DNA of 64,000 nucleotides. It comes from Mustelus asterias. Its lineage: Eukaryota. The notes below the pieces were generated by a model, which saw nothing but the letters and a program-made list of their open reading frames with translations, was not told the origin of the DNA and searched no databases. Position numbers and translations under genes: made by a program. Of the stretch, positions 10,256-59,396 are shown piece after piece. The stretch covers positions 116,126,001 to 116,190,000 of the forward strand of contig NC_135807.1 of the NCBI RefSeq assembly GCF_964213995.1, read 5' to 3'. Numbering within the stretch: the stretch's first letter is position 1; each line of letters starts with the position of its first letter.

Positions 10256-10407
10256 ATTTTGTTGCAGAAACAACATCTCAGTGTTATTTTTCTGGGCAAT
10301 GTTGGTGCAGGAAAAGTAAGTATTTATTTACAGCACGAAGTTTGCTCAAAAGGTAAGAAGCTGCTGATGCCAGAATCTTTCAACATCGTAGCATCATGTG
10401 ATTCCAA

Positions 10408-13330: not shown

Positions 13331-13364
13331 AATAAAAAATTAATAAAAATAAAAAAATAATAAA

Positions 13365-13580
13365 AATTTCTGGAACTCAGAATTTACTGATGACCATGAA
13401 TCGATTGTCGGAAAAACCCATCTGGTTCACTAATGTTCTTTAGGGAAGGAAATCTGTCATCCTTACCTGGTCTGGCCTCCATGTGATTCCAGACCCACAG
13501 CAATGTGGTTGACCCTCAACTGCCCTCCAAGGGCAACTAGGCTCGGCTGGTCAGCCAGCAACCCATGAATGAATAAAAAA
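13365..13580 (+). mobile_element. Bipartite SINE, 5'-truncated (family of 22149-22536)
   Basis: AAAAACCCATCTGGTTCACTAATG...CAAGGGCAACTAGG...ATGAATGAATAAAAAA. Confidence 0.85.
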
Positions 13581-13641
13581 AATATATACCTTCTGAAGTC
13601 AATATAACATTCTTAATATTTAGAAAAATAAAATGTCTACA

Positions 13642-14850: not shown

Positions 14851-15391
14851 AGGTCTCCCTGACTTCCCACATCCTGCCTGGCATTCTTTCTACTCTGAAG
14901 AAACAAAAACAACTTACTGGAACCTACCCTCGCCTCTGCCTGTTCATGCCGAAGCCTGTTTGAGCCAAAGCCGTCCCACTCTGCTCCCTCTCACTCCACT
15001 GCCCGCTCACAACGCTGCCCACTGGATAGAGTGGCCTGCTTTTTAAACCTTCCGCGCGCTACTGGCTGACATCAGGTGCCTGCGCAGTCTCGCTTTCCAC
15101 TCGCTGCCTCCCTTGCTCCGACTCAAAAAATTCACTGGGGCCTACTTCCGGTTTTACACTCCTGGCTGCCTTAGAGGAAAAGAAAACTCCGGAAAAAAAA
15201 GAGTAAGTTAAAAATACCTCTTACCCATTAGCTCTCCTCACTTGAACCACCACTCTAGCTGCTCCTCTGGAACAATGAACTCATCTACTGTGAGATCCTG
15301 GGTAGTAAGAAGCATGTATCTCATGACCCCAGTCTGTGGCTCCTGGCTGTGCTGCAATGGAAACTAAGATAGTGCCATCAGACATCATGGC

Positions 15392-15619
15392 TGATGCACT
15401 ATCAATTACGATACGAGGACTCCAGCGAGTGAGTGAAATAACAGGCTTTTAATCACAAAGAACTGGAGCACACCCTTGTAGCTAACCGGGCCCAGACTGA
15501 GGCAAGGAGGAGGAACCATCACCTTTATACCTCGTTCAGGTGGAAAGGGAGGAGTCTCGGGCCAGGTGCAGCAGGGGTGTGTCCAGGCATACAACATGTA
15601 ATTACAGTGGTTCACCACA
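15392..15619 (-). repeat. 3' LTR of Gypsy family 1
   Basis: Direct repeat of 19648-19895; adjacent polypurine tract AAAGAGGGGGTGAA on the minus strand. Confidence 0.97.
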
Positions 15620-15740
15620 TTCACCCCCTCTTTAAAAAAAGAGTCCGGCGGGGGTGAGATGGATGGAACAATATATACAGAGGCATGAAGATATATATAT
15701 ATATACAAGAGTCACGAAACTGAAGTAAGGCGTCGTCCCC

Positions 15741-17702: not shown

Positions 17703-18595
17703 TTCACGCTGGAAGACCGAAACCCCATTGGTGACGCCGAAGGGAACCCTAAGTGATAGAGGCGGCCATCCGCCTCGAAAGCCGTATATTTGCGGTCCTC
17801 CGGGCGGATGGGGAGCTGGTGGTAGGCCGATTTGAGGTCAATCGTGGAGAACACCCGGTATTGCGCAATCCGATTGACCATGTCGGATATGCGCGGAAGG
17901 GGATACGCATCCAGCTGCGTGTACCGGTTGATGGTCTGACTGTAATTGATGACCATCCGGTGTTTCTCCCCAGTTTTGACCACCACCACCTGCGCTCTCC
18001 AGGGGCTGGTGCTCGCCTCAATGATCCTTTCCTTCAGGAGCCGCTGGACCTCAGTCCTAATGAAGGTCCTGTCCCCCGCACTGTACCATCTGCTGTTGGT
18101 GGCAATGGGCTTACACTCGGGGGTGAGGTGTTCAAATAGCGAGGGAGGGGTGACTTGAAGGGTCGAAAGGCTGCAAGTGGTGCGTGGTGGGCAGTCTAGG
18201 AACTGTGGGTTGCAGACGGAGATCGGGGGAAGAGGCCCGTTGTACTGCAACGTGACACTCCTAAGATGGGTCAGGAAATCGAGCCCGAGGAGGACGAGAG
18301 CGCAGAGGTGTGGCAGCACCAGGAGCTTAAAATTTTCGTACTCGGTCCCCCGAACTGTAAGGGTCACCACACAGTGCCCGAGGACATCCACCGAGCGGGA
18401 CTTTGAGGCCAAGGAAATGGTTTGTTTGACTGGCAGCACAGAAAGGGCATAGCGGCGCACTGTATCGGGGGGGATGAAACTCTCCGTACTCCCGCAGTCG
18501 AACAAACAATTTCCCACGTGGCCGTTTACCTGGATGTCCATCATGGACCTGGCGAGTTGATGCAGACGGGATTGGTCTAGCTGGACCGCTGCCAC
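17570..18595 (-). pseudogene. pol: Gypsy protease and RT N-terminus
   Basis: LFDCGSTESFI protease motif, SPWRAQVVVV, DLKSAYHQ; frameshift near 17750. Confidence 0.93.
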
Positions 18596-18620
18596 CGTGG
18601 ATCCCGGAGAATGATTGACC

Positions 18621-18823
18621 GGCGTCTAAAATGGCAGCTCCCTTGTCTCACATGTGGCCGACGGCGTCCAAAATGGCGGTTCCCTTGACTCACACGCGGC
18701 CGATGGCCGTCCAAAATGGCGGTTCCCTTGACTCACACGTGGCCGATGGCGTCCAAAATGGTGGCTCCCTTGACTCACACGCGGCCGATGGCGTCCGAAT
18801 TTGTGGTTCCCTCGGGTCGCACG
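18621..18823 (-). repeat. 42-bp coding tandem repeat (~4.8 copies) between Gag zinc knuckle and protease
   Basis: Units start at 18621, 18663, 18705, 18748 and 18790; encode CESREPPFWTPSAT-like 14-mers. Confidence 0.92.
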
Positions 18824-18829
18824 CTACAC

Positions 18830-19619
18830 TGTTTGGCTTCGAGGACGACTTTGTCCTGCAGACTTTAACGTAGTGGCCTTTCTTTCCGCACCCAAAGCAG
18901 AACACTTCCCTCGCCGGGCAGCGTTGTCGGGGGTGCTTCCCCAGGCCGCAAAACTAGCACTTCAGACCCGCAACAGCCGCAGCAGTCGAATCGTTGGTGG
19001 GGCGCTGTGTGGCGTAAGTCTGTGGCCCTCCTAGATACTGGGGTGGCAGCGGCCGTGGTGCCCACGATGTAACCGCATGGTCGGGTGCGTACGCCTCGAG
19101 GTTATGGGATGCCACTTCTAGGGATTCAGCGAGTGTCACAGTTTTTGGTAGATCTAGCCCACCTTGCTCTAGCAGTCGCTGCCGAATGTAGTTGGACGAA
19201 ATGCCCGTAACGTAGGCATCGCTGATTAAGTCCTCCGTGTACTGCGCGGCGGATACAGCCTTGCAGTTACAGGCCCTGCCGAGTACCCGTAGTTCGCAGA
19301 GAAACTGTGCGCTCGATTCTCCCGGCCGCTGTCTTCGAGTAGCCAGAAGGTGCCTGGCGTAGACTTCATTTGTCCGTTTACTGTACTGGCTCTTTAGGAG
19401 CTCTAGCGCGTCCCTGCACATCTCAGCGTCACGGATGGTGGCATAAACCATGTCGCTTACCCAGGCGTGGAGCACGTGCAGCTTGTCTGAATCGGACTGG
19501 ATGGCAACAGAGGCTTCGAGGAAGGCTTCAAAGCACTTCAGCCAGTGATCGAAGCTGTTGGCAGCTCCCACAGCTTGCGGATCCAGGTTTAATTTATCGG
19601 GCTTTAGAATTTGCTCCAT
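18830..19619 (-). pseudogene. gag: Gypsy Gag with CCHC zinc knuckles (frameshifted near 18960)
   Basis: MEQILKPDKL..FDHWLKCF; CFGCGKKGHYVKVC; homologous to the family 2 Gag. Confidence 0.92.
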
Positions 19620-19647
19620 TCTGTTTTTTTATCTTTACGATTAAAAT

Positions 19648-19895
19648 TGATGCACCATCAATTAAGATACGAGGACTCCAGCGAGTGAGTGAAATAACAG
19701 GCTTTTAATCGCAAAGAACTGGAGCACACCCTTGTAGCTAACCTGGCCCAGACTGAGGCAAGGAGGAGGAACCATCACCTTTATACCTCGTTCAGGTGGA
19801 AAGGGAGGAGTCTCAGGTGGAAAGGGAGGAGTCTCGGGCCAGGTGCAGCAGGGGTCTGTCCAGGCATACACATGTAATTACAGTGGGTCACCACA
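19648..19895 (-). repeat. 5' LTR of Gypsy family 1
   Basis: Direct repeat of 15392-15619; TATA-like GTATAAAG and ATTAAA on the minus strand. Confidence 0.97.
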
Positions 19896-22077: not shown

Positions 22078-22735
22078 GGAGTGGCTACACACCACCACTT
22101 GCAAATTCCCCTCCAATCCACGTGCACCATCCTAATTTCCAACTATGTTTTTTTTATTCATCCCTGGGACATGGACGTTGCTGGCTGGCTAGCATTTATT
22201 ACCCATCCCTTGTTGCCCTTGAACTGAGTGGCTTGTTCGACCATTTCAGAGGGCAGTTGAGAGTCAACCATATTGCTGTGCCTCTGGAGTCACGTGTAAA
22301 CCAGACCAGATAAGACGCAGATTTCCTTCCCTAAATGACATTAGTGAACCAGATGGGTTTTTCAGACAATCAAGGATGGTTTCATGGTCATCAGTAGATT
22401 CTAAATTCCAGATATTTTTTATTGAATTCAAATTCCACCATCTACCGTGGCAGGATTCGAACCCGGTTCCCCAGAACATTAGCTGAGTTTCTGGATTAAT
22501 CGGCGAGCGATAATACCACGAGGCCATCGCCACCCCTTATTATTGTCGGTCCTTCACAGTCATTGGGTCAAAATCCTGGAACTCCCTTCCTAACTGCACT
22601 GTGGATGTTCGACTGAATCGACTGCGACGATTTAAGAAGGCAACAAACCAGCACATTCTCAAGGGTAATTAGGGATGGGTAATAAATATTGGCCTAGCCA
22701 GCGACACCCACACCCCATGAACGAATATATAAAAA
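22078..22735 (+). mobile_element. 3' end of an APE-RT LINE, split by an antisense SINE
   Basis: Right part encodes SFTVIGSKSWNSLPN...RFKKATNQHILKGN* followed by AGGGATGGGTAATAAAT...CCCATGAACGAAT and an A tail. Confidence 0.75.
22149..22536 (-). mobile_element. Full-length bipartite tRNA-headed SINE
   Basis: A box 22516-22526, B box 22453-22463; body matches the LINE 5' ends at 38790-39092 and 47640-47939; tail matches the LINE 3' end at 22660-22735. Confidence 0.9.
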
Positions 22736-23844: not shown

Positions 23845-24545
23845 GATGTATAGAAACTAGAGCAGGAATAAGCCATTTGGCCCTTCAAGCCTGCTCTGCC
23901 ATTCATTTTAATCATGGCTGATCATCAAATTCAATATCCTGCTGCTCTCTTTCTCCCACATCCTTTGATCCCTTTATCTCCAGGAGCTATATCTAATTTC
24001 TTCTTGAAATCAGACAACATTTTGGCCTCAACTACTTTCTGTGATAGTGAATTCCACACATTCACCACTTTCTGGGTGAAGAAATTTCTCCTCACCTCAG
24101 TTATAAAAGGTTTGCCCCTTATCCTCAAACTATAACCCCTAGTTCCGGATTCCCCCACCATTGGGAACACTCTTTCTGAATCTACCCTATCTAACCCTGT
24201 TAGAATTTCACAAGTTTCTATGAGATCCCCTCTCACTCATCTAAACTCCAGTGAATATTATCCTAGCCATCATAATCTCCCCTTATAAGGCAGACCTGCA
24301 ATCCGAGGAATCAGCCTGGTAAACCTTTGCTGTACTCCCTCTATAGCAAGCACATCCTTCCTCAGATAAGGATATCAAAACTGCACATAGTACTCCAGGT
24401 TTGGCCTCACCAATGCCCTATGCAATTGCAGCAAAACATCTCTATTCCTATACTCAAATCCTCTTGCTGTGAAGACCAACATACCATTTGCCTTCTTTAC
24501 TGCCTGCTGTACCTGCGCACTTACTTTCAGCGACTAATGCACAAG
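23845..24545 (-). mobile_element. CR1 LINE 3' fragment
   Basis: ORF 23931-24236: MRGDLIETC..RRNFFTQKVVNVWNSL. Confidence 0.92.
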
Positions 24546-29152: not shown

Positions 29153-29450
29153 GCAGGCCTTCCTGGTATTATCACTAGATTATTAATCCAGAAACTCAGC
29201 TAATGTTCTGGGGTCCTAGGTTCAAATCCTGCAATGGCAGATAGTGAAATTTGAATTCAATAAAAATATCTGGAATTAAGAATCTACTGATGATCATGAA
29301 ACCATTGTCAATTGTCCGAAAAACCCACCTGGTTCACTAATGTCCTTTAGGGAAGGAAATCTGTTGTCCTTACCTGGTCTGGCCTATATGTGACTCCAGA
29401 GCCACAGCAAGGTGGTTGATTGTCAACTGCCTTTGGGCAACTAGGGGTAG
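29153..29450 (+). mobile_element. Bipartite tRNA-headed SINE
   Basis: Matches the reverse complement of 22149-22536. Confidence 0.88.
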
Positions 29451-29902
29451 TCTAGCCACAAGGGGGAGAGTCCGAAGGTCAAGCCCTTGCCCCCAATCTG
29501 AGTACCCACTTCTGCAACCTCCAGGTCCCTAGGGGAACCCTCTCTCTGCAGCCTGGCAGCAGCAGAAGGGCATCTGGGCAGAGCATTAACCTCATTAATA
29601 CCCCTTGGGGTCCACCATGCCAGGTCCATGAATGTCAAGACTATGAGCCAAAGCCTGCCTGGTGCATTTCCCACTGGGGAGGTCTGTGCAACGTGGGAGG
29701 CCACTGAGTCAAGCTTCCAACCTGCAAATGAAATGCAAATCACTAGATTTGCATAATTATCGAGTTCCAGCCTGCTCTGGGCAAAAACCTGATCAGGGCA
29801 GGAAGGGCGAGCTGGGTGAGTGGTGACAGATTTGCTGCCTGGCGGGAACCCCATTTTAGCCCTGACGCTTGATTCAGCGGGATGTCAGGATTTCCTTCCG
29901 CA

Positions 29903-29959: not shown

Positions 29960-30290
29960 ATCACAATACGCTTATTTTTTTATTCATTCTGCCAAAATGG
30001 ATAATTTTACATTTTCCCACATTATACTCCATTTGCCAGAACTTTGTCCACTCATTTAACTTGCCTATGTCCAGTTGTAGTCTCTTTATAACCTGTTCAC
30101 AATTTACTTTCCTACATATCTTTGTGTCTTCAGCATATTTCACAGCCATACCTTCAGTCCCTTCATCCAAGGTATTGATATAAGCTGTAAAGATTTGAGG
30201 CCCCAGCACTGATCCCTGTGGCACACCATTTGTTACATCCTGCTGACCAGAAAAAGACCCATTTATGCCATATCCCAGTTTTCTGTTAAC
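29960..30290 (-). mobile_element. CR1 RT fragment
   Basis: PQGSVLGP..YAEDTKI..WQMEYNVGKC. Confidence 0.88.
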
Positions 30291-30749
30291 TAGAGACGAA
30301 TTAGTCTTGTATTAGGCACTGGTGCAGAGGTTCAAACATTCCAGTAGAAAACAATGTAGTTGAGGACCAGGCAATTGAAACATGGACAGAGCTCTGGCTC
30401 TTCTGTTGTTTTATTGGTGGAATCTGGCTGGCAGCCAACTTTACTTTGACAAGGCAATATTACAGGTAATAGCAGCTTGACTGAGGTGAAAGGTGGTCAT
30501 GTGACACAACTCCTGCTTATTTCCCATAGTTTGGACAAAGGATATATATTCCTGGTCTGGGTTTTTAAGGAGGTTAATATTTGACCCATTAATAAATTTA
30601 CCAGAGGATTCACTGTCCTATGTCTCCACAAATGGATTATCTCAATAGGCCAGGGCTTTGTCTCTGAAATGTACATGGGCCTTTACACATTACCTTGGGA
30701 TTTAATTTCTGTGGTCACAGGGGGCATTCGCAACTCTTTCGAAATAACA

Positions 30750-36570: not shown

Positions 36571-37499
36571 CATCAGTCATGTTAGTGTGGGCTTCTGTGG
36601 GGTCTTCAGTTTGAATTCAAGCTGATTGAAATGGCTTGTCTCTGCAAGGCTTTTGCCCAGTAGCAGATTTAGAGTTGGTGGGGCCCTGTATGCAGGCGAC
36701 ACCATGCCACCACATGGTTTGCTTCACTGTAAATTCTCAATTCTTTTTGGTACACTGAAAGAGAAAAGCGCCATCATGGATCATCACATCAAATAAATGT
36801 AGATGAACACAATGTGCCACTTTGAACCTCTTTATGAAAGTTTCAGCTGCATTATTTCTGTTTGTTGGGTCTGCCTGCAGTGGTGGATTTAGAGTTTGTG
36901 GCCTTGTGCTCAGCCATATTTTGAGCCCGCCATCATTTGCCACCGCGCGGTTTGTTTCGTGGTAGATCAGCCACTGCTTTTTTTTTTAAGAGAATATGAA
37001 CCTGTCTAGGGTGACATACTTGAACTGTGATTGTTCCCAAAACTGGAATTATTGAGTCCATGTAAGCTTGAAGAGTTTCTGTTGCATGAGTGAAAGTAGC
37101 GAAAAGTACCGAGAGTGAAGTTTATCACTCAAAATACTTGCTTGAGTGGCAACATCAATCAGAAGCAACACCGAGACGCCCGCGATCTCAACTGAGCAAT
37201 CCTTAAAATGCCTGGTGTTTTATTGTTCATGACAGTATACGTATGCTGTACCTCACGCTCGGGAAGCGATTCCTCCATATGTCAAAACAATTCAGTCCTC
37301 TTCTTCTGCACATCTTTGCAAAATAATTCCCCTTTAAACATAAGTTACACTTTTTCCTTAAAGCTGGACATAGCATTGTGAATCAGTGAGCACTCCACAA
37401 TTTGGGCATAGGTTTGAAGGTATCTGACTGTGATGGGGCACAAGTTGATGAGACTGCTGAGGTCTCTTTGTAATTCTTGCCCTTGAGTTGGTTGGACAA

Positions 37500-39092
37500 G
37501 CTTGTCTGCATTCTTCTGGCTCAGGATTGTTGCGAATGCTTCAACCTTATCTTTTGCACTGATGTGCTGGGCTCCCCCATCATTGAGGATGAGGATATTT
37601 GTGGACCCTCTTTCTCCAGTGAATTGTTCAATTGACCACCACCTTTCATGGCTGGACATAACAGGACTGCAGAGCTTAGATCTGATCCGTTGGTTGTGGA
37701 ATTGCTTTGCCCTATCATTTGCTGCTTAATGCTGTTTGGCACGCAAGTAGTCCTGTGTTGTAGCTTCACCAGGTTGACACCTCATTTTTAGGAATGCCTG
37801 GTGTTGCTCTTGGCATGTCCTCTTGCACTCTATATTGAAACAGGGTTGATCCCCTGCTTGGTGGTCATGGTAGAGTGGCAGATGTGCTAGGATATGAGGT
37901 TACAGATTGTGGCTGAGTACAAACCTGCTGCTACTGATGGTCCACAGGGTCTCATAGATGTCCACTCTTGAGTTGCTCGATGTGTTCAAAGTCTATCCCA
38001 TTTAGCATGTGCCACTCAACACGATGGAGGGTATGCTCAGTATGAAAATGGGACTTTGGCTCCACAAGGACTGTGCAGTGATCACTCCTACCGATACTGT
38101 TATGGACAGATGCATCTGCAGCAACCAGATTAGTGAGGATGAGATCATTTATGTTTTTCCCTCTTGTTCGTTCCCTCACCAGCTGCCGCATTGCCAGTCT
38201 AGCAGTTATGTCCTTTAGGATCTAGCCAGCTTGGTCTGTGGTGATACTATTGAGCCACTCTTGGTGATGGACATTGAAGTCCCCCACCCAGAGTATATTC
38301 TGTGCCCTTGCCACCCTCAGTGCTTCCTCCAAGTGGCATTCAACATGGTGGAGTGCTGACTCATCAGCTGAGGGATGTACGTGGTCAGCAGCAGGAGGTT
38401 TCCTTGTCCATGTTTAACCTGGTGCCACGAGACTCCATGATGGGATTCAGAGTTGATGTTGAAGACTCCAGGGAAACTCACTCCTGACAGTGTGCCACTG
38501 TGCCACCACCACCTCTCCTGGATCTGTTTTACCAGCGAGACAGGACATACCCAGGAATGGTGATGGTGGTGTCTGGGACATTATCTTTAAGGTATGATTC
38601 TGTGAGAATGATTATGTCAGGCTGTTGCTTGACAGGTCTGTGGGACAGCCCTCCCAATTTTGGCACTAGCCCCCAGACTTTGCACGGTTGATAGGGCTGG
38701 GTTTGCCATTGTTGTCTCAGGTGCCTAGGTCAATGCCATTTGTCCATCTGGCTCATTCTTTTTGTTTCCTTTTTGTAGCGATTGAATACAACTGAGTGGC
38801 CATTTGAGAGGGCATGTAAGAATCACCCATCACTTTTCTGTGGGTGTAGAGTCACATGTAGGCCAGACCAGACGAGGTAAGGATGGCAGGTTTCATTCCC
38901 TAAAGGACATTAGGGGACCAGTTGGTTTTTTTTAATGACAATCAACATGGTCATCATTAGACTTTTAATTCCAATTGTTTTATTGAATTTGAATTCCACC
39001 ATTTGCCGAGTTGGGATTCGAACCTGAGTCCACAGAGCAATACCGTGGGTCTCTGGATTACCAATCCAGCAACAATACCACTGTGCCACCAC
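37500..39092 (-). mobile_element. 5' part of a tRNA-headed APE-RT LINE
   Basis: A box 39078-39088, B box 39014-39024, then AP-endonuclease relic (GLVPKLG..KQQPDIIILTESY; DLILTN..IGRSDHCTV); colinear with 46240-47939. Confidence 0.85.
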
Positions 39093-39329
39093 TTTCCACA
39101 GTAAACAGACTCATAACCAAACACAGAAGAATTGGACACTATGATCTTCATACTAGATTGGGTAGGCTGGGGACAGATCAGATATTGGCCCTTGGGCCTC
39201 ATTTGTATTACATTGACAAGCTATGGATCCCTTCTGTGCATTCCCCAAGTGGATCTCTGGCCAAGTAAATTTAAACTGAGGGTTGTTGCATCAGTGACAG
39301 TGACCATCAGGTAGGTGCCAGGCTGGGTG

Positions 39330-41997: not shown

Positions 41998-43052
41998 AAG
42001 AACAAAGAACAAAGAACAGTACAGCACAGGAAACAGGCCCTTCGGCCCTCCAAGCCTGTGCCGCTCCTTGGTCCAACTAGACCAATCGTTTGTATCCCTC
42101 CATTCCCAGGCTGCTCATGTGACTATCCAGGTAAGTCTTAAACGATGTCAGCATGCCTGCCTCCACCACCCTACTTGGCAGCGCATTCCAGGCCCCCACC
42201 ACCCTCTGTGTAAAAAACGTCCCTCTGATGTCTGAGTTATACTTCGCCCCTCTCAGCTTGAGCCCGTGACCCCTCGTGATCGTCACCTCCGACCTGGGAA
42301 AAAGCTTCCCACTGTTCACCCTATCTATACCCTTCATAATCTTGTATACCTCTATTAGATCTCCCCTCATTCTCCGTCTTTCCAAGGAGAACAACCCCAG
42401 TCTACCCAATCTCTCCTCATAGCTAAGACCCTCCATACCAGGCAACATCCTGGTAAACCTTCTCTGCACTCTCTCCAATGCCTCCACGTCCTTCTGGTAG
42501 TGCAGCGACCAGAACTGGACGCAGTACTCCAAATGTGGCCTAACCAGCATACTATACAGCTGCATCATCAGACTCCAGCTTTTATACTCTATACCCCGTC
42601 CTATAAAGGCAAGCATACCATATGCCTTCTTCACCATCTTCTCCACCTGTGTTGCCACCTTCAAGGATTTGTGGACTTGCACACCTAGGTCCCTCTGTGT
42701 TTCTATACTCCTGATGACTCTGCCATTTATTGTATAACTCCTCCCTACATTATTTCTTCCAAAATGCATCACTTCGCATTTATCCGGATTAAACTCCATC
42801 TGCCACCTCTCCGCCCAATTTTCCAGCCTTTCTATATCCTGCTGTATTGCCCGACAATGCTCTTCGCTATCCGCAATTCCAGCCATCTTCGTGTCATCCG
42901 CAAACTTGCTGATTACACCAGTTACACCTTCTTCCAAATCATTTATATATATCACAAATAGCAGAGGTCCCAGTACAGAGCCCTGCGGAACACCACTGGT
43001 CACAGACCTCCAGCCGGACTGCGGAACACCACTGGTCACAGACCTCCAGCCG
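41998..43052 (-). mobile_element. Young 5'-truncated CR1 LINE with open ORF2 C-terminus (42077-43039)
   Basis: SGVPQGSVLGP, FADDTK, RPHLEYC, ERVQRRFT, RGDLIEVYK, FFTQRVV; (AAGAACA)n tail. Confidence 0.97.
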
Positions 43053-43532
43053 TGTATATGTTATATGTTGTTTTGGGTGTTGAAGGGAGCTGTTCAGTGG
43101 CATTAAGCCTGAATAATAACTATTTATTGATGGCCATAACTATGTGCAGATATAAAAGACAGTAGGCTTCTTCAGACCAAGCCATGAGCTATCTCCATTC
43201 AGACTACTCCTTGTCATGTGATTCCCTTAACATCATCATGTGGGCAGACTGCTTCTCCAGTCCCACATTAACCCTTTCAGTCCTGAACACCCTGACGCCA
43301 CACCTCCCCCACAGTTTTTCATTCAAATCTATTTACATGCTACATTTTCTCCCTGCAGATCTCTGTTTTGGAGGTTTAAATGGTCTGGAAGTTTTTCAAC
43401 TCTCCCTAATCTTGACCTTTTGAAGTTTGGAGGATTGGTAGTCTTAACATGGATCTCTTTGTTCTGACTTGGCTGTTCTTCAGTAGAAGCTTTAGTGGAT
43501 GTTTTTTTTTGTTTGTTTGAAGTTCAACACTT

Positions 43533-44931: not shown

Positions 44932-45625
44932 GGGGCTGATTCTCCCATCCCGCTGCACTGAGTTTTTTAGCACAGCTGGCTGGGAGATTTATGCGGTGCC
45001 GGATTAGCGCAATCTGCGTTGGGCACCCAGCCCCGAGCGCATCTCCCAGCACTGGATTTCCGGTGCCATCAGCTCTGTGCCAATTTATGCAGCCCTTCAT
45101 TTTAATATTATTTAAATGACATTAGCGGGCCTGGGACTGAAATCTCTGGGCCCGCTAGCTTCTACCCCACGCCAGAAGTATTTCACTCCAGTGGGGATTA
45201 CTCCAGCTCCCCACTTGCAGGGAGCTAGTGGCCCAAACCCGCTGAAGTGAAAGGGGGCAATCGGGCGGCGGGGGAATGCTGTTGGGCATTGGCGCCTTGG
45301 CAGTGCCAGCCTGGCTCCCTGGCACTGCCCAAGAGGAGTTTTAACAACACCAGGTTAAAGTCCAACAGGTTTATTTGGTAGCAAATACCATTAGCTTTCG
45401 GAGCGCTGCTACCAAATAAACCTGTTGGACTTTAACCTGGTGTTGTTAAAACTCTTACTGTGTTTACCCCAGTCCAATGCCGGCATCTCCACATCATGTC
45501 TGCCCAAGAGGGCCAAATTCCAATGCCCAGAGGGCACCTTGGCACTGCCCACTAGGCATGGGGCAGTGCCAAGGGGTGGGCCCTAATGGGGGTAGGGCCT
45601 GATGGGGGTGGTGCCACTGGAGGGC
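44932..45625. mobile_element. Non-autonomous Harbinger-like element (one end)
   Basis: GGGGCTGATTCTCCC resembles the TIR at 59397; GGCACTGCC-rich interior. Confidence 0.55.
45336..45499. mobile_element. Penelope family B fold-back mini-insertion
   Basis: Perfect 48-bp inverted arms 45336-45383 and 45407-45454; 12-bp TSD CTGCCCAAGAGG; matches 51450-51520. Confidence 0.88.
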
Positions 45626-45629
45626 CAGG

Positions 45630-47939
45630 TATGATGTCAACCAATGGAGAGTTTTCCTCCAATTCCCACTGACTCCAGTTTTGTTCGAGCTCCTTGATGC
45701 CACACACGGTCAAATGCTGCTTTGATATCGAGGGCAATCACTCTCACCTTATTTTTAGCATTCAACTCTTTTGTCCATGTTTGAACCAAGGCTGTAATGA
45801 GGTCAGGAGCTGAGTGACCTGGCAGAACCCAAACTGGGCGTCACTGAGCAGGCTATTGCTGGGCAGGTGCTGCTTGACAGAACTGTTGATGACCCCTTCC
45901 ATCACTTTATTGATAATCAAAAGTAGATTGAATGGACAGTAATTGGTGGGTAGGATTTGTCCAGTTTCTCGTATACAAGATATACCTGGGTAATTTTTCA
46001 CATTGCCGGGTAGATGCCAGTGTAGTAGCTGTACTGGAAGAGCTTGGCGCACAGCAAGTTCTGGAGCATAAGTCTTCAGTACTATTGCTGGAATATTGTC
46101 AGGACCCATCGACTTTAAAGTATCCACTGCCTCCAGATGTTTCTTGATGTCATGTGAAGTGAATTGAATTGGCTGAAGACAGACATCTGTGACACTGGGG
46201 ACCTTCGGAGGAAGCCGATATGGATCATCCACTCAGCATTTCTGGTTGAAGATTGTTGCGAATTCTTCAGCCTTATCTTTTGCACTGATGTGCTGGGCTC
46301 CTCCATCATTGAGGATGGGGATATTTGTGCAGTCTCCTCCTCCAATGTGTTGTTTAATTGTCCACCACCATTCTCAACTGGATGTGGCAGGGCTGCAGAG
46401 CTTATATCCGATCCGCTGTATGTGGGATCACTTAGCTCTATATATTAATGGCTGCTCATGCTGTTTAGCACAAAAGTAGTCCTGTTTTGTAGCTTCACCA
46501 GATTTACACCTCATTTGTAGGTATGCCTGGTGTTGCTCCTGGCATGCCCTCCTGCACTCTCCATTGAACCAGGGTTGATCCCCTGGGTTAGTGGCAATGG
46601 TGGGGGGTGGGGGGATGGGGGGAGTACAGATATGCTGGGCCATGCGATTACAGATTGTGGTTGAGTATAATTCTGCTGTTGCTAATGGCCCACAGCGTCT
46701 GATGGATGCCCAGTCTTAAGCTGCTAGATCTGTTTGCAGTTTATGCCATTTAGCATGGCGGTGGTGTCATACAACACGCTGGAGGGTATCCTTAATATGA
46801 ACAAAAGGACTGTGCAGTGGTCACTCCTACCGATACTGTCATGGACAGATGCATCTGTCCATAGGGGCTTAGAGCCTCGAAAGCTTGTGTGGCTTTTGCT
46901 ACCAAATAAACCTGTTGGACTTTAACCTGGTGTTGTTAAACTTCTTACTGTGTTTACCCCAGTCCAACGTCGGCATCTCCACAAGATGCATCTGCGGCAG
47001 GCAGGTCGGTGAGAATGAGGCCAAGTATATTTTTCACTCCTGTTGGTTCCCTTACCACCTGCAGCTATGTCCTTTAGGACCTGGCCAGGTCGGACTATGG
47101 TAGTATTAACGAGCCACTCTTGATGATGGACACTGAAGTCCCCCACTTAGAGTGCATTCTGTGCCCTTGACACCCTCAGTGCTTCTTCCAAGTGGTGTTC
47201 AACATGGAGGAGTACTGCATCATTAGCTGTGGGGGGATAGTGCTTGGTAATCAGCAGGAGGTTTCCTGATTCATGTTTGACCTGGTGCCATGACACTTCA
47301 TGGGGTGCAGAATCGATGTTCAGGACTCCCAGGGCACCTCCTTTCCAACAGTACACTTTGTGCCACCGCTCTGCTGGGACTGTCCTGCCGGCAGGACAGA
47401 ACATATCCAGGGTAGGTAATGGTGGTGTCTGGGGCATTATCTATAAGTTATGATTCTGTGAGAATGACTATATTGGGCTGTTGCTTGACTAGTCTGTGAG
47501 ACAGCTCTCCCAGTTTTAGCACCAGATGTTGCAGGGTTGACACGGTTGGGTTTGCTGTTGTTTTTTCTGGTGCCTAGATTGATGCAGGGTGATCCTTCGG
47601 ATTTCATTCCTTTTTGTTCCATTTGTAGAGATTGAATACAATTGATTGGCTTGCTAGGCCATTTCAGAGTCAACCGCATTGCTGTGGTTCTGGAGTCACA
47701 TGTACACGGGACCAGGTAATGGCGGCAGGTTTCCTTCCCTAAAGGACATTAGTGACCCAGTTGGGTTTTTAACCACAATTGACAATGGTTTTATGGTCAC
47801 CATTAGACTTTTAATTCCAGATATTTTACTGAGTTTTTAATTCCACCATTTGCTATTGTGGGATTTGAACCTGGGTCCCCAGAGCATTACCCAAGGTCTC
47901 TGGATTCCTCATCGAATGACAATACCACTGTGCCACCCC
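45630..47939 (-). mobile_element. tRNA-headed APE-RT LINE, 5' ~2.2 kb
   Basis: A box 47925-47935, B box 47861-47871; relic peptides GDFSVHHQEW, QPWFNGECRRAC, KSMGPDNIP, LSDAQFGF, DIKAAFDRVWHQG. Confidence 0.88.
46858..46983 (+). mobile_element. Penelope family B terminal micro-insertion
   Basis: Matches 45407-45493; 11-bp TSD AGATGCATCTG. Confidence 0.85.
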
Positions 47940-48343
47940 TATACAGTATTTTTTGTCCTGGAGCGTGTTTCTCATTTCATTGTTTAAGGAGCTGTGCCGC
48001 CATTGGGGGCTTTCTGTACTGTGGTTTATCATCCCCTCCAAATATGGCTCTATTTTTCTGATGGACCTCAGATTTTCTGATAATTTATGTAACATCCTGA
48101 AGAGTTAGATCTTGTTTGGTTTGAAGTAGATCAGAAAGAGTATCATTCATTATCCCAACTACTATGCAGTCCAATATCACAGCCTTCCACAACCAATATA
48201 AATACATTGGTGAAGGTGCCCACAGGTTCTCCAGGTTTTTGGAACCTTTTATTATAATTTGTTCTGTCCAAAATTTGTTACTCTTTAGGTTAAAGTAGCA
48301 ATCAAAGGATTTATGACCTCTCTAACTTTGTTAGGTGATTCAT

Positions 48344-51147: not shown

Positions 51148-51445
51148 TTTGCTCTACCCCACCTTGACCCCTTTGTTTTCATTCTATTTTATTTAATTCT
51201 TTACTGTTCTCTACCTTTTACTTCTTTATTGTCTTTCTTCATTTTTCTCCCCCCCCCTCCACTCTTTCCCCCTACATTATCCCCCTTCCCTTACCTTTTC
51301 TCCCCCTTTGCTTCCCCTTTTCTAAATTTTACCTCTGTCCCATCCATTTCCCTCCCCTCCCCTCCCCCTACATCTTCATCTGTCACAGCTTACCCTCATT
51401 TTAGCTTCTCTGCCGTTTGGCCATTCACACTGTTTATTCTCTCTG

Positions 51446-52370
51446 TAAGAAGTCTCACAACACCAGGTTAAAGTCCAACAGGTTTGTTTGGTAGCAAATA
51501 CCATAAGCTTTCGGAGCACAGCTCCTTCGTCAGATGGAGTGGATATCTGTTCTCAAACAGTGCAAACAGACACAGAAATCAAATTACAGAATACTGATTA
51601 GAATGCAAATCTCTACAACTAGCCAGGTCTTAAATGTACAGACAATGTGGGTGGAGGGAGCATTCAACACAGGTTAAAGAGATGTGTATTGTCTCCAGAC
51701 AGAACAGCTAGTGAAATTCTGCAAGTCCAGGAGGCAAGCTGTGGGGGTTACTGATAATGTGACATAAATCCAACATCCCGGTTTAGGCCGTCCTCATGTG
51801 TGCGGAACTTGGCTATCAGTTTCTGCTCAGCAACTCTGCGCTGTCGTGTGTCGTGAAGGCCGCCTTGGAGAACGCTTACCTGAAGATCCAAGGCTGAATG
51901 CCCGTGACTGCTGAAGTGCTCCCCCACAGGAAGAGAACAGTCTTGCCTGGTGATTGTCGAGCGGTGTTCATTCATCCGTTGTCGTAGCGTCTGCATGGTT
52001 TCCCCAATGTACCCCATGCCTCGGGACATCCTTTCTTGCAGCGTATCAGGTAGGCAATGTTGGCTGAGTTGCAAGAGTAGGTACCGTGTACCTGGTAGAT
52101 GGTGTTCTCACGTGAGATGATGGCATCCGTGTCGATGATCCGGCACGTCTTGCAGAGGTTGCTGTGGCAGGGTTGTGTGGTGTCGTGGTCACTGTTCTCC
52201 TGAAGGCTGAGTAGTTTGCTGAGGACAATGGTCTGTTTGAGGTTGCGTGGTTGTTTGAAGGCAAGAAGTGGGGGTGTGGGGATGGCCTTGGCGAGATGTT
52301 CGTCTTCATCAATGACATGTTGAAGGCTCCGGAGGAGATGCCGTAGCTTCTCCGCTCCGGGGAAGTACTG
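51446..52370 (-). mobile_element. Penelope-like element family B (3' part) nested in family A
   Basis: GIY-YIG peptide YIGETMQTLRQRMNEH..VGEHF..EQKLI..GLN (51748-52074), upstream Cys motif, terminal repeat 51446-51545. Confidence 0.92.
51501..51537 (-). ncRNA. Minimal type I hammerhead ribozyme (Penelope B)
   Basis: CCAU-CUGACGA-A-GGAGC ugu GCUCC-GAAA-GC-UU-AUGG; palindromic stem III. Confidence 0.78.
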
Positions 52371-52510: not shown

Positions 52511-53072
52511 CTTTTCTCTCCTACAGATGCTGCCAGACCTGCTGAGATTTTCCAGCGTTTTGCCTTTTGGTTTCAGATTCCAGCATCCGCAATAATTTGC
52601 TTTTAATTTGCTTTTAAGCAAATTTCCTGAATTTCCAACCGTTTTAAAGTAAAGTGTCCGTTTCGAATTTCAGCCAGTTCGGTTGAGTGTGACACAACCT
52701 TTTAATTGGTTGGCACAAGGATAGAACTAATCAGCTGTGTGGAGCAGTGATGTGCATCAATTGAACACGAGGCACGAAGCTTCGGTAACAGAAGGCTTTT
52801 ATTGTCTAACAATGGAACTAATAGAACGTAAACACACTATCCCAGACTGACGAGGTCCCGCCCGAGCAGGGGGTCTTATACCTCTCCCAGGAGGCGGAGT
52901 CCGACTGGGATGTGCCACAACAGTAACAACCACAGGTGTATCAATCCCACCCTAGACCAACAACAACATTAGAACAATCCCACAGTGGGAACCAACGATG
53001 GTTCACCACATTCACCCCTCCTTTGAGAACAAAGGCCGGCGGGGTACGAAAACAGACTAAAATGTCAACAGA

Positions 53073-54772
53073 TTATAAGTTCAGACGGTCTGGAGGACCG
53101 CACCGTCGTTGTGACCTCCTCAATACCGGCGGTGACACCGGAGTAGGTGCTTGCGATGGCGTTCTCCCCAAAACAGCGTCCAGCTGTTCTCCCACGGACT
53201 CACGGGCCGGTTGACCCTGATGAAGCGGTAGTGCAGGGGATCCCGGTACATTCTGCAATGGTGCCGATCTCCGGGGCTCAGGCAAGCTGTGCATTGGAGT
53301 AAAACTGTTAAGCACTGGTCCCGGTGCTGTCCGCGCGACGTCCGGGGGAGAAATAAGTGATAAGGGATTCGTCACTGGGGGTATGGGAGCGACAGGAGTT
53401 GCTACGTCCCCTGCGGGCGCCAGGTCTCGGATCGAGACTGTGTCCTCTCGCCCGTCAGGATATGCCACATAGGCATACTGAGGGTTGGCGTGGAGGAGGT
53501 GGACCTGTTCGACCAAGGGGTCGGACTTGCGGGCCCTTACATGTCGCTGCAGAAGGACGGGTCCTGGGTACGTCCTGGGAGACTGGAAGGCCTTTGGACT
53601 TCAGCGCCAATAGGACAGCCTTCCAGACTGTAGCATTCTCTCTTTCCACCTGTCCATTACCCCTAGGGTTGTAACTCGTGGTCCTACTAGAGGCAATCCC
53701 GTATGAGAGCAGGAATTGCCTCAAGTCATTACTCATGAACGACGAGCCCCTGTCGCTATGGATATAGCTGGGGTACCCGAACAGGGTAAAAAGATCACGG
53801 AATGCCTTGATCACCGTGGCAGTCGATGTGTGCGCGCAGGGGACAACAAATGTGAACCGGGAGTACTCATCTATTATGTTCAGAAAGTACACGTTCCGAT
53901 CTGTTAAAATCCACACTCAGCCTCTCGAAGGGGCGAATGGCCTTGACCAAATGTGCCCGGTCAGGTCGGTAAAAGTGCGGTTTGCATTCCGCGCAAATCC
54001 GACAGCTCCTTGTCACCGACCTGACGTCCTCCACCGAGTAAGGCAGGTTGCGGGCTTTGACAAAGTGGTAGAGCCGAGTGACCCCAGGATGGCACAGGTC
54101 ATTATGGAGGGCGTTCAAGCGATCCTCCTGCATAGTAGCGCATGTTCCGCGCGAGAGGGCATCCGAGGGCTCATTGAGTTTCCCTGGACGATACATGATA
54201 TCGTAGTTATAGGTGGAGAGTTCAATTCTCCACCGCAAGATCTTATCATTCTTGATCTTGCCCCTCTGCGTGTTGTTGAACATGAACGCCACGGACCGCT
54301 GGTCCGTGATCAGGGTGAACCGCTTCCCCGCCAGGTAATGGCGCCAGTGTCTGACGGCCTCCACAATGGCCTGGGCCTCCTTTTCCACCGCTGAATGCCG
54401 AATTTCGGGGCCTTGGAGGGTGCGGGAAAAAAACGCGACGGGCCTGCCCGCCTGGTTTAGTGTGGCGGCCAGGGCGAAATCAGATGCATCGCTTTCCACC
54501 TGAAAAGGGATGGATTGGTCTACCGCGTGCATCGTGGCTTTCGCGATGTCGTGTTTCAATTCCTTGAAGGCCAATTGGGCCTCTGGCGTGAGTGGAAAAG
54601 TCGTGGACTTAATAAGCGGACGGGCTTTGTCCGCGTAGTTGGGGACCCACTGCACATAATAGGAGAAGAAGCCTAGGCATCTTCTCAGTGCTTTTGCGCT
54701 AGCGGGCAAGGGAAGTTCAGCAAGGGGGCGCATACGGTCTGGATCAGGGCCAATGACCCCGTTTTCCACCAC
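53073..54772 (-). pseudogene. pol: Gypsy Pol RNase H and integrase, broken by small deletions
   Basis: ORFs 53867-54772, 53455-53916 and 53073-53516 align to family 1 Pol; a segment is missing near 53578. Confidence 0.95.
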
Positions 54773-56917
54773 TTATCCCAGGATGGCTAACCGGCGCGTA
54801 CGGAATACACACTTCTCCCTGTTGTAGGTCAAATTCAGGCGAGATGCAGTGCGTAAAAAGTTCTGGAGATTTGTGTCATGGTCCTGCTGATCACGGCCGC
54901 AGATGGTGACATTATCCAGGTACGGGAAGGTAGCCCGCAGCCTGTTCTGGTCCACCATTTGGTCCATAGCACGCTGGAAGACCGAGACCCCATTGGTGAC
55001 ACCAAATGGAACCCGAAGAAACTGATACAGATGACCATCCGCCTCAAAGGCCGTGTAGTGTCGGTCCTCTGGGCGAATGGGGAGTTGGTGGTAGGCGGAC
55101 TTAAGGTCTATGGTGGAGAACACCCGGTACTGCGCAATCTGATTGACCATATCAGATATGTGCGGGAGGGGATACGCATCCAGCTGCGTATATCGATTAA
55201 TGGTCTGACTGTAATCAATGACCATCCGGGGTTTGTTCCCGCTCTTGACCACCACAACCTGTGCTCTCCACGGACTAACACTGGGCTGTATGATCCCTTC
55301 TTTGAGGAGTCGCTGAACCTCAGATCTGATGAAGATCCAATCTTCAGCGCTGTAATGCCTACTTTTAGTAGCGATGGGCTTGCAGCCTGGTACCAGATTC
55401 TTGAATAAAGAGGGTGTGGTGATCTTTAATGTAGAAAGATTGCATGCGGGACGCTTTGGACAATTTGGAGACTGCAGCTGTTCCCCTACTGTCAGCGAAG
55501 GGAGTGGCCCACCGTACTGTAGGATCACACTCTTCATGTGGACCATAAAGTTTAGTCCGAGGAGAATTGGTGCGCAAAGATGCGGCAACACAAGGAGCCT
55601 GAATTGCTCGTAAATTGTGCCTTGCACTTTCAAGGTTACCACACAACGTCCTAGCACAGGGACAGACCGGGACCTTGATGCCATAGAGATTGTCTGTTTG
55701 GCAGGTTGAATCTGGAGTCCACACCTCTTTACAGTGTCAGGGTGAATAAAGCTCTCAGTGCTCCCGCTGTCAAACAGACAATAAATTGCACGACCATTTA
55801 CCTGTATATCCATCATCGAACAGTCAAGCCTGTGGTGCTTAGCCTGGTTCAGGGTGATCGACGCCACCGTTGGTCCGTGATCGTCACTGCAGGCAGCTGA
55901 GGTCGATGCTGAGGACCCCTGCTGGTCACTCATGGTCATCGTCGACCAAAATGGCCACCCCCATGAATCGCACATGGTTGAGGGCGCCAAACGTAGCGAC
56001 TCCTGGTGGTCATCCTCCTCCGACTCCGTCGACCACAATGGCGTCGTCCTGGACTCGCACGTGGACGAACCCCGTGAGTACTTCGACGTCGATGGTGATG
56101 ATCCCCGTTCCGAAGGGTCACAGGCCGCACTGCCGTTCTTGGGCTTCGATCTGCACACCTTCGCATAATGCCCCTTTTTACCGCATAGGTTATAGACCAC
56201 CGCTTTAGCGGGACACTTTTGTCGTGGATGCTTGGCTCCTCCGCAGAAGTAGCACCGCGGGCTGCATGGGGCTGCAGCCGTCGTCGGGTCTACATGGGAG
56301 CACGCCATAATACTGCACGTCGAGCCCGTGGGGCGAGGAGGGATTTGCGACTGCTCCTGCCACGTTGTCTCCACATGGTCCTCCGGATACAGGACCAAGC
56401 TCTTCGAAGCCGCCTCAAGCATTTCAGCCAATTCCATAGCTTGGGTCAGGTTGAGATTCCCCTTTTCTAGCAGCTTGAGACGGATGTATGAAGACCCTAC
56501 CCCTGCCACAAACGCATCTCGGGCAAGGTCATACATGTACTGCTCAGCCGACACAGCTTTGCAGTCACAGCCCCTGGCAAGCTGCAAGAGCTCATTGGCG
56601 TAATCCTCCATGGTTTCGCCCGACTGCCGACGTCGTGTAGCGAGGAGGTAACGAGCGTGGATCTCGTTGGGAGGTTTCGTGTAGCGCTTTTTTAAAAGCT
56701 CGAGGGCCCTCGGGTAAGTGGTGGCCGCACGGATCGGGAGGTAGACTGTGTCGCTTACCCTTGCATGGAGGACCCGGAGTCTGTCATCATCTGTGGTGAC
56801 CGCTGCGGAGGCTGCCAGGTAGTCTTCAAAACACTTCAGCCAGTGGTCGAAGGTGTTAGAAGCGCCCACCGCACGTGGATCTAGCGTCAGACGTTCTGGC
56901 TTAAGGATTTGCTCCAT
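54773..56917 (-). CDS. gag-pol: Gypsy Gag-protease-RT single ORF (ends at a frameshift)
   Basis: MEQILKPERL start at 56917, zinc knuckles, LFDSGSTESFI, DLKSAYHQ, PFGVTNG, YLDN. Confidence 0.95.
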   Translation of the reverse strand: MEQILKPERLTLDPRAVGASNTFDHWLKCFEDYLAASAAVTTDDDRLRVLHARVSDTVYLPIRAATTYPRALELLKKRYTKPPNEIHARYLLATRRRQSGETMEDYANELLQLARGCDCKAVSAEQYMYDLARDAFVAGVGSSYIRLKLLEKGNLNLTQAMELAEMLEAASKSLVLYPEDHVETTWQEQSQIPPRPTGSTCSIMACSHVDPTTAAAPCSPRCYFCGGAKHPRQKCPAKAVVYNLCGKKGHYAKVCRSKPKNGSAACDPSERGSSPSTSKYSRGSSTCESRTTPLWSTESEEDDHQESLRLAPSTMCDSWGWPFWSTMTMSDQQGSSASTSAACSDDHGPTVASITLNQAKHHRLDCSMMDIQVNGRAIYCLFDSGSTESFIHPDTVKRCGLQIQPAKQTISMASRSRSVPVLGRCVVTLKVQGTIYEQFRLLVLPHLCAPILLGLNFMVHMKSVILQYGGPLPSLTVGEQLQSPNCPKRPACNLSTLKITTPSLFKNLVPGCKPIATKSRHYSAEDWIFIRSEVQRLLKEGIIQPSVSPWRAQVVVVKSGNKPRMVIDYSQTINRYTQLDAYPLPHISDMVNQIAQYRVFSTIDLKSAYHQLPIRPEDRHYTAFEADGHLYQFLRVPFGVTNGVSVFQRAMDQMVDQNRLRATFPYLDNVTICGRDQQDHDTNLQNFLRTASRLNLTYNREKCVFRTRRLAILG

Positions 56918-57494
56918 ACTCTCCTTTCTTTTTCCCTTCCGTCGAGAGCTTAATGTTAGACAATAAAATTGATGCGCATCAATTGAACACGAGGCACGAA
57001 GCTTCGGTAACAGAAGGCTTTTATTGTCTAACAATGGAACTAATAGAACGTAAACACACTATCCCAGACTGACGAGGTCCCGCCCGAGCAGGGGGTCTTA
57101 TACCTCTCCCAGGAGGCGGAGCCCGACTGGGATGTGCCACAACAGTAACAACCACAGGTGTATCAATCCCACCCTAGCCCAACAACAACATTAGAACAAT
57201 CCCACAGTGGGAACCAACGATGGTTCACCACAAGCAGATAAGGCTGTTTGCTAAATTTTATTTATTTTCCTCATTTCCACCTTTCTCGGTGTCATTGTTT
57301 TCCTCCACATTTCACATAATCGTTGCATGTGACTCTTAAATGTAACAGTGCGGTTCTTCAAGAGCTGAGGGGATAATTCATCCAGTGTCCTTTCTACACT
57401 GTAGGCCATGCCTTGACTTGCATATTATTGTACCATACAAAATGAACTCTCGGGAAGATTTCTGTGAGGCTGTGCCCTCTGGGTTGAGTTGCAC

Positions 57495-57689: not shown

Positions 57690-58560
57690 TAGGAATCTGA
57701 GTACAGAAGTAGCCCATAAATCTGTTCTGGTCGTTAAGGAGATCAGGTTGATCTGCAACATACCTCCATATACCTGTCTTTGGCCATATCCCTTGTACCT
57801 TTGGTTAACAAAAATCTGTCGGTCTCAAATTTAAAATTAACAATTGACCTCACATTAATTGCCAATTGCAGAAGAGTGTTCCAAAATTCTACCCCCATTT
57901 CTGTGTAGACGTGTTTCCTAACTTCACTTCTGAAAGGTCTGGCTCCATTAGACTGTGCTCCCTAATCCTAGATTCTGCAGCCAGTGGAAATGGTAACAGC
58001 CTTATCTCTGACTCATACCTTCTTGTTTAGCAAGGCCCGGCTCCAGAGATACAGCCTGCTTGTATTTGTCCTTCAACTGCTTCACCGACACGTCAATATT
58101 GGTGTAGATTTTCATCTCCATTCCCTCAGCAGTAATCAGGTGGAGCAGATTGCCTGAATCTTCCCACCCTTTCCTCATGCCCCACTATCCCACCTACTTT
58201 TCTATATGTGTTAAGCCTCCTTTTAAATGGGTTATTGCTATCTGCTTCAACCATTCCATGTGGCAGTGAGTTCCACATTCTCAGCACTCTCTGTATAAAG
58301 AAATTGCTCTGAAATTCCTCATTTGACCTTTTGGGGTCTACGTTGTATTTATGCCCTTTTTTTTATAAACACCCACAAATCTCCACATGCACCCTATCAA
58401 ACCTCATAATTTTAAAGATCTTTAGCAAGTCTCCTCTTAGTTTTTTCTTTTGCAGAGTGATGTCCGCCCAATCTTTCCTGATAACTTGCATCCTCTTCAT
58501 TCTGGATAAATTTCTGTTTTTTTGTACTTTCTCCAGTGCTTCAACATCCTTTTATGTAGC
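57690..58560 (-). mobile_element. Old CR1 3' fragments
   Basis: Degenerate similarity to 9700-9950 and 23950-24250. Confidence 0.55.
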
Positions 58561-58715
58561 ATAAAAGGAAAGGATGATATTTATATAACACATTTTGCTA
58601 CCTCAGGCCATCCCAAAGCACGTTACAATCAATTAAAGCCTTTTGAAGTGTAGTCACTGTTGTAATGTCAAAATCCATTTCTACACCATGGAGACCATAA
58701 CAGTACACAACTCAC

Positions 58716-59061
58716 ATAGAACATAGAACATAGAACAGTACAGCACAGAACAGGCCCTTCGGCCCACGATGTTGTGCCGATCTCTATCTGAAACCAAGAT
58801 CAAGCTATCCCACTCCCTATCATCCTGGTGTGCTCCATGTGCCTATCCAATAACTGCTTAAATGTTCCTAAAGTGTCTGACTCCACTATCACTGTAGGCA
58901 GTCCATTCCACACCCCAACCACTCTCTGCGTAAAGAACCTACCTCTGATATCCTTCCTATATCTCCCACCACGAACCCTATAGTTATGCCCCCTTGTAGT
59001 AGCTCCATCCACCCGAGGAAATAGTCTTTGAACGTTCACTCTATAATTTGAACGTTCACTC
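58716..59061 (-). mobile_element. Young short CR1 3' end
   Basis: (CATAGAA)n tail; ORF 58800-59072 RFFTQRVVGVWNGLP. Confidence 0.92.
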
Positions 59062-59396
59062 AATATGATCACAATGGTGATCTAACCACAATTCCATATA
59101 AATTTAACATTAATTCTCTGCTTTTGTACTCCATTCATTTAGAAATGAGTCCCAGTGCATTTCACTGTTTTAGTCCTCATCAATTTGTGTTGCTGCTTCT
59201 TTAACTCTACTCGCAGATCTCTTTGTTTTTCTGTCCAATTTAGTATCCTACATCTTCCAAGGAATAAGTGATCTGCTTATTCCATGTTACAAAAAGAACA
59301 AACTCATACCTCACTATTACTTGCTAGCTATCTGAGAGCTTTGCAGACTCTTTTCTTTGCCACACTTTTCCACATTATTTGCCGTACCCCAATGTG

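Follow-up and report, generated by a model that had tools for sequence, protein, structure and literature searches.

A decayed, high-copy family of shark LINEs with a tRNA-type head at its 5′ end

Results

Two LINE copies with the same 5′ arrangement

The window, by which we mean the whole 64,000-nucleotide stretch of Mustelus asterias DNA analysed here, contains two copies of a LINE, copy A (39092-37514) and copy B (47939-45630). Both lie on the minus strand and run colinearly from a head into a coding relic. The order is the same in the two copies, namely A and B boxes, a 210-nt body, a leader of ~100 nt and an APE-RT frame, and both are broken off on the 3′ side, at 37514 and 45630, respectively. 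Their parts are as follows.

39000..39098, minus strand: copy A, tRNA-like head, with A box 39088-39078, B box 39024-39015 and an extra hairpin between the boxes
38790..38999, minus strand: copy A, body common to solo SINEs; it leaves the SINE path at the fork 38790/38789
38688..38789, minus strand: copy A, LINE-specific leader, A-rich and the most diverged part (71% to copy B)
38006..38687, minus strand: copy A, APE endonuclease relic with frameshifts and stops, recognized by profile and Pfam matches
37514..38005, minus strand: copy A, linker from APE to RT, broken off at 37514
47846..47942, minus strand: copy B, tRNA-like head, with A box 47935-47925 and B box 47871-47862
47640..47845, minus strand: copy B, body, with the fork at 47640/47639
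47532..47639, minus strand: copy B, LINE-specific leader
46797..47531, minus strand: copy B, APE relic into which an unrelated repeat (46861-46983) is inserted
45630..46796, minus strand: copy B, linker plus the beginning of the RT (profile positions 241-620 of 963); the copy breaks off at 45630

Copies A and B are identical at 1216 of 1518 aligned columns (80%), with identities of 79% (head), 81% (body), 71% (leader) and 81% (coding part). Near-equal values for head, body and ORF are as expected of units that were inserted whole, and the flanks of the two copies are unrelated to each other. The 123-nt repeat nested in copy B (46861-46983), possibly a Penelope-like end, has an 11-nt duplication at its ends; related pieces lie at 45336-45503 (an inverted pair), 51445-51523 and 14156-14201. 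The stretch adjoining the break of copy A (37000-37513) resembles by eye a decayed gag/protease relic of an LTR element. Contigs of the sequencing runs X3 and X5 closely match 38644-38867 and 38947-39226, one of them spanning the 5′ flank, and the insertion of copy A may be common to other samples or species.

The tRNA-like head and its Pol III boxes

A box scan finds the A and B boxes that the earlier note had read at the start of both copies. In each copy both boxes are intact and 53 nt apart (A and B box at 39088 and 39024 in copy A, and at 47935 and 47871 in copy B). Nine A and B box pairs of this kind occur in the window, compared with a mean of 0.22 per shuffled window (maximum 2 in 100 shuffles). 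Against the tRNA model of Rfam, copy A scores weakly (15.8 bits where the cut-off is 29, E 0.67), its variable region holding 22 inserted nt, and copy B gives no match; ARAGORN finds no tRNA. The extra hairpin forms a stem of six pairs in each of the four heads, those of the two LINE copies and of two solo SINEs. Between LINE copies and solo SINEs the stem differs by one two-sided change, which from four sequences is no more than a hint. A second abundant tRNA-headed SINE of the window, presumably HE1-like (713-1059 and ~12 related places), has the ordinary 33-nt box spacing and no real match to the head and body studied here (best E 0.2).

A single APE-RT frame without ORF1

A profile of 11 relatives matches copy A from position 19 on and copy B from 23 to 620 of its 963 positions. 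By profile and Pfam, the APE is present in both copies and the start of the RT in copy B only; the Pfam matches, to the endonuclease in A and the start of the RT in B, are fragments, both under the curated cut-offs. The colinear match from 19 to 620 describes a single ORF in which APE is followed by RT. The motif DIKAAFDRVWH, which the earlier note quoted in its entry on 37500..39092, belongs to the RT and sits in copy B instead. Between the start of the head and the start of the endonuclease lie ~410 nt with a longest stop-free frame of 62 and 72 codons in the two copies, so no ORF1 fits. The arrangement described earlier, a SINE-like body of ~300 bp followed at the same junction by an endonuclease relic with no ORF1, is borne out. 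Comparison of the two copies resolved no conserved in-frame start codon.

The nearest proteins are gene models of Heptranchias, Heterodontus and Rhincodon, and the APE motifs persist in both copies as well as in three shark genera. One Heptranchias gene model of an aldo-keto reductase (P0002) holds ~215 residues of the LINE ORF, matching 46586-45951, by exon capture or annotation error. In the ESM Atlas, matches were only to unnamed RT-like clusters.

Placement of the RT and relatives lacking a head

In a FastTree phylogeny of ~200 residues at the RT start (108 rows, without Repbase references), copy B falls into a clade of 18 (support 0.948) and then of 23 (0.985), alongside unnamed proteins and those of lancelet and moth. 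The CR1 of the window itself lies far outside this clade. The Zenon label of the clade derives from its member P0003, the ORF start of which matches by eye that of Zenon-1_Hmel (sequence printed in the supplement of PMC6740152). The RT, whose clade the earlier note had left open, groups in this tree with single-ORF Zenon-type CR1 elements, which places the LINE near Zenon-type CR1. CR1-Zenon-like LINEs are listed for the whale shark in the available part of bioRxiv 443036.

Zenon or CR1-Zenon LINEs of Lepidoptera and bivalves likewise have a single APE-RT ORF, a short 5′ leader and a length of ~3.3 kb, and the available text of PMC6740152 also gives them a short 3′ UTR with an A tail and internally deleted partners (Persaeus). 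Whereas the Zenon-derived 5′ end displays neither tRNA homology nor a Pol III promoter, the shark LINE has A and B boxes in both copies; moreover, its identity to Zenon-clade proteins is only ~30-50%, and its sense strand is poor in T runs. Bivalve partner LINEs mostly carry an ORF1, according to the portion of PMC11481361 at hand.

A metagenome profile scan provided the best 80 of 479 distant loci, among which 46 with a match of at least 1.5 kb served for T-run counts and 28 with an ORF start for a test of the upstream sequence. An A and B box pair upstream of the ORF was found in 0 of these 28 relatives, one of which belongs to the inner clade and three to the next, and a lone B-like match in three; Rfam searches on five relatives revealed no tRNA and no ribozyme. 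These headless relatives agree with the earlier proposal that a LINE gained a tRNA-type head, and the gain looks like one made in the shark lineage. The LINE may either have taken the head first and shed the SINE, or have regained the head from a SINE built on its own 5′ UTR. Searches for shark DNA copies in metagenome, genome and viral collections found none, the viral scan giving one short locus. In the closest relative with DNA, two near-identical 35-nt tandem units lie upstream of the ORF (L001:380-485), with no Rfam match.

Solo SINEs and the 3′ tail

The window also holds three solo SINEs and a 3′ fragment of a LINE.

22148..22536, minus strand: full solo SINE with the same head and body (73-75% to A and B) and a 75-nt tail ending in an A run
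29156..29460, plus strand: solo SINE with decayed ends, body shortened before the tail
13360..13583, plus strand: 5′-truncated solo SINE, body shortened before the tail
22537..22735, plus strand: LINE 3′ fragment of the same broad clade, with the last 46 codons, the stop 22670-22672 and a tail

The full solo SINE follows the LINE path up to the fork (38790 in A, 47640 in B) and then turns into its 75-nt tail; after the fork, copies A and B have a common leader and none of the solo SINE tail. The tail of the LINE 3′ fragment is 76% identical to the SINE tail, and its last 46 codons align with the final part of the profile built from relatives (probability 89%, E 2e-6). Since the SINE tail also ends this LINE fragment, the solo SINE consists of the 5′ 300 nt joined to the 3′ tail of a LINE. 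A protein search with the fragment returned nothing linking it to copies A and B, and we infer that it belongs to the same family. The short 3′ UTR with an A-rich end is seen on this separate fragment, which has no sequence link to A or B, and we estimate the length of the element at ~3.3 kb from the head region, ~960 codons and the tail. The tail folds no better than shuffles. The "short and non-coding" feature of SINE2 elements applies to the solo copies only; A and B continue into APE-RT coding relics.

The full solo SINE abuts, in antisense orientation, the 3′ fragment of the LINE that is its likely partner and probably sits inside this fragment; the site is AT-rich and shows no clear duplication. 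The stretch to its left (22090-22147) may be more of the LINE 3′ fragment and adds only 1-2 bits. In the SINEs at 13360-13583 and 29156-29460 the body passes into the tail ~30 nt sooner than it does in the 22-kb copy; they are a second SINE subfamily with a shorter body. SacSINE1 (a Deu-SINE) and HE1 (a V-SINE) are also tRNA-headed shark SINEs with LINE-derived tails. The label SacSINE1/Deu was rejected for the SINE studied here: its head and body differ by eye from the published SacSINE1 head (positions 2-78; PMC5786205 supplement), and the domain alignments of Deu, Meta and UCON3 (PMC7245038 supplement) show no match by eye.

The head belongs to the LINE family

The fork is identical in the two of two copies that retain the 5′ part. 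The earlier note had named a target-site duplication or an A tail between head and ORF as speaking against a shared architecture; neither stands at the fork in either copy, nor is there any SINE tail. At diagnostic sites in heads and bodies, copies A and B are set apart from the two solo SINEs by 19 sites, compared with 6 and 3 for the other pairings. The heads of A and B therefore form a lineage of their own and are not random SINEs.

A protein search with the APE start yielded three hits among 13 candidates, all of them whale-shark (Rhincodon) gene models. One starts with the translated body, one has 39 body residues across the fork and one has the leader; in two of the three, the translated body directly precedes the APE. 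This evidence consists of predicted gene models, in which the body is visible and the tRNA part is not.

Contig depth, which does not equal copy number, was taken from four runs of four studies and at least three organisms by their codes. Along 37511-39096 it ranges from ~400 to >1,000,000, and outside from 3 to 96. At 39082-39089, each run has ~200 loose ends that share a short G run before diverging; together with the drop in depth they mark one common 5′ boundary near 39098, with unlike flanks. On the LINE side of the fork (38785), depth in the four runs is 2496, 684, 448 and 1506. Depth within the element is lowest in the leader bin (418-1355), and none of the family contigs among those listed bridges head and ORF. 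The ORF, too, contains troughs of almost this depth in places where copy A is diverged, which suggests that the troughs follow the divergence of copy A itself.

The same fork, the diagnostic sites, the whale-shark models and the 5′ boundary of the contigs speak for family architecture and not for chance adjacency, as the earlier note had supposed. The tRNA-type head is very probably a fixed part of the family, with the single-ORF LINE starting with it. The two copies represent a high-copy, now decayed shark family of single-ORF LINEs, the 5′ end of which is a tRNA-derived head plus a 210-nt body.

T runs on the sense strand

Vertebrate Pol III requires a minimum of four T for termination. Copies A and B contain one and three runs of four or more T, respectively, none of five or more, and no T4 run common to both. 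Although these low counts confirm what had been noted by eye, they do not amount to depletion: 2.8 and 4.3 runs of T4 or longer were expected (p 0.21 and 0.36; 0.2-0.8 over nulls), and neither T4 nor T5 runs are below chance in base or Markov shuffles.

Runs of TTT are scarcer than expected, with 6 versus 13.0 in A (p 0.012) and 7 versus 18.6 in B (p<0.001, nested insert removed), in a test that was chosen after the T4 test had failed and for which the two copies are not independent. Runs of A, C and G are as expected in both copies, and two CR1 and two gypsy relics have no TTT deficit. The TTT ratios of 0.46 (A) and 0.38 (B) are below those of all 46 relatives (0.62-1.68), and the five lowest TT tiles among the 312 in the window all fall in A and B. 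When only columns with T in both copies are considered, a single TTT run is left against 5.6 expected (p 0.016), and none in 1118 ORF columns. Phe is encoded by TTT in 4 of 17 codons, versus 94 of 168 in other two-codon families (p 0.02 for the pooled copies and 0.11 for either one). When CpG and the products of its decay are kept fixed, the values become 6 versus 8.5 for A (p 0.21) and 7 versus 13.0 for B (p 0.03); under this CpG-aware null there is a TTT excess in all six control relics, and copy A is exceeded by 45 of the 46 relatives and copy B by all 46. With synonymous shuffles, p is 0.31 for A and 0.03 for B. Pol III ends at T tracts, as stated in the accessible part of PMC13675443, so the TTT deficit is what Pol III transcription predicts, though no proof of it.

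A distant T-rich element (L074:881-3559) has 10 T4 runs where 32 are expected and no tRNA-like head was found in it, so T-run avoidance can arise in a headless element. Conventional CR1 relics at 13620-14923, 42008-43290, 23875-24545, 29976-30302, 9750-10260 and 58200-59070 are normal or elevated in T-run content on the sense strand. Two gypsy-type LTR elements related to each other, which served as composition controls (15392-19895 and 52748-57232), are 74% alike in pol; their LTR pairs are 89% and 99% identical, and their long open frames have a few breaks.

Discussion

A candidate Pol III-transcribed LINE

As the best explanation we tentatively put forward an integral head, a coding RNA that would be made by Pol III and an APE-RT of the element's own, a combination that falls just short of an even chance. 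Given the architecture, Pol III transcription by itself is, on sequence grounds, about evenly balanced. The mechanism below follows from the anatomy of the element and from what is known of SINEs and LINEs. The head would have been gained in the family's lineage by a template switch from a tRNA or from the family's own SINE. TFIIIC would bind the internal A and B boxes, and Pol III would start at the G run at the 5′ boundary, read ~3.3 kb of T-run-poor sequence and stop where the flank offers its first T tract. Translation of the resulting uncapped RNA would be cap-independent, body and leader helping, and the APE-RT protein would bind the short 3′ tail and insert a copy by target-primed reverse transcription, which would restore the promoter in every full-length copy. 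The solo SINE would use the same APE-RT protein, a partnership that we infer. In its fullest form, the proposal describes an autonomous, protein-coding vertebrate retrotransposon of ~3.3 kb, transcribed by Pol III from end to end, with T runs purged from its frame and cap-free translation, that would be parent and motor of a shark SINE ranking among the most abundant; this version is possible, and somewhat less probable than the explanation in its general form.

The most serious competitor keeps the integral head but lets Pol II make the coding RNA, the captured head and body acting as or replacing a Pol II promoter. The boxes would then persist through TFIIIC binding or exchange with the abundant SINE, and the low number of T runs would result from CpG decay, amino-acid make-up or avoidance of U-rich signals. 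The available part of Kojima 2024 (PMC10886601) holds non-LTR retrotransposons, LINEs included, to be Pol II units and SINEs to be Pol III units, and SINE length to be limited by Pol III processivity, a limit that counts against the Pol III reading. A capped RNA, moreover, needs no special route of translation, the TTT deficit is smaller under the CpG-aware null, Phe is low in several relatives too (1.8-6.0%), and the unrelated locus L074 is poor in T runs without any head. On the other hand, Zenon-1_Hmel, a Pol II-type relative, has several T4/T5 runs by eye, CR1 relics of the same window with similar CpG loss show no deficit, and Phe prefers TTC while the other two-codon families do not share this bias. 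Taken together, transcription by Pol II is the less likely of the two readings, yet it is well ahead of the other alternatives.

A non-autonomous chimera, formed by recombination of a SINE 5′ part with a LINE ORF and mobilized in trans by a conventional LINE whose own 5′ end is a different one, would account for the lack of an intact copy among those seen, for a depth over the APE that exceeds that over the head in run X11 and for the thinly covered leader bin. We consider it improbable: among the loose ends listed at the APE start there is no other 5′ sequence, the sole one continuing into the same leader; the APE motifs have been kept in both copies and in three shark genera; and the ORF shows depth troughs as well where copy A is diverged. 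LINEs that insert sequence-specifically using host small-RNA genes exist, and the solo SINE leaves the LINE path exactly where its tail starts, as would be the case for a LINE inserting into the SINE between body and tail and co-transcribed from the SINE promoter. This target-specific scheme is less probable still, because the truncated 3′ fragment at 22.5 kb has no SINE body before it on the same strand (one case), the tail already contains the final codons and stop of its ORF, the heads of A and B are a lineage apart from the solo SINEs, and none of the 15 joints listed links variable LINE positions to the fork. Finally, SINEs might twice have landed upstream of truncated LINEs by chance. 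The SINE is abundant, with three more copies in 64 kb, and the A-rich leader could be a fossil A-tail; nevertheless, the identical fork, missing tail, common leader, diagnostic sites and same junction in the whale shark leave this coincidence hardly any probability, the shared junction refuting it.

Relation to known retroelements and implications

Bov-tA, AfroSINE and CoeSINE4 combine 5′ and 3′ parts of a LINE with a tRNA head (Kojima 2018, PMC5786205), just as the solo SINE described here comprises a LINE 5′ part and 3′ tail. In those systems the head is found on the SINE only and the donors are RTE or Vingi elements, whereas here the coding element itself, of the CR1 group, bears the head. 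The nearest printed precedent that we found is one sentence in the same paper on tRNA-like sequence in LINEs, namely RTE-1_DAn and elements related to it, which differ in belonging to the RTE clade and to an insect. Cassandra, Helenus and Ajax (TRIMp3), as far as the available text of PMC10886601 goes, are also non-SINE retroelements that gained a Pol III promoter, but they are non-coding, shorter than 1.3 kb and of LTR type. The accessible portions of the literature on SINEs and LINEs (including PMC5499810, PMC7245038, PMC10294476, PMC11481361, PMC3747384, PMC10468316 and PMC1845163) give no account of the family; Repbase and Dfam lie outside this scope and may hold it. The family is apparently an undescribed, abundant variant of a Zenon-type LINE with a SINE-type head.

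For repeat annotation the arrangement is a warning, as head-bearing copies will be split into a SINE and a headless LINE. Even under transcription by Pol II, the SINE would correspond to its LINE, with the head but with the middle taken out, in a clade that is not known as a source of SINE bodies. If Pol III transcription proves true, the family would break the rule, set out in the available part of PMC10886601, that LINEs are Pol II and SINEs Pol III units whose length is limited by Pol III, and it would provide a natural test of the export and translation of a long uncapped RNA.
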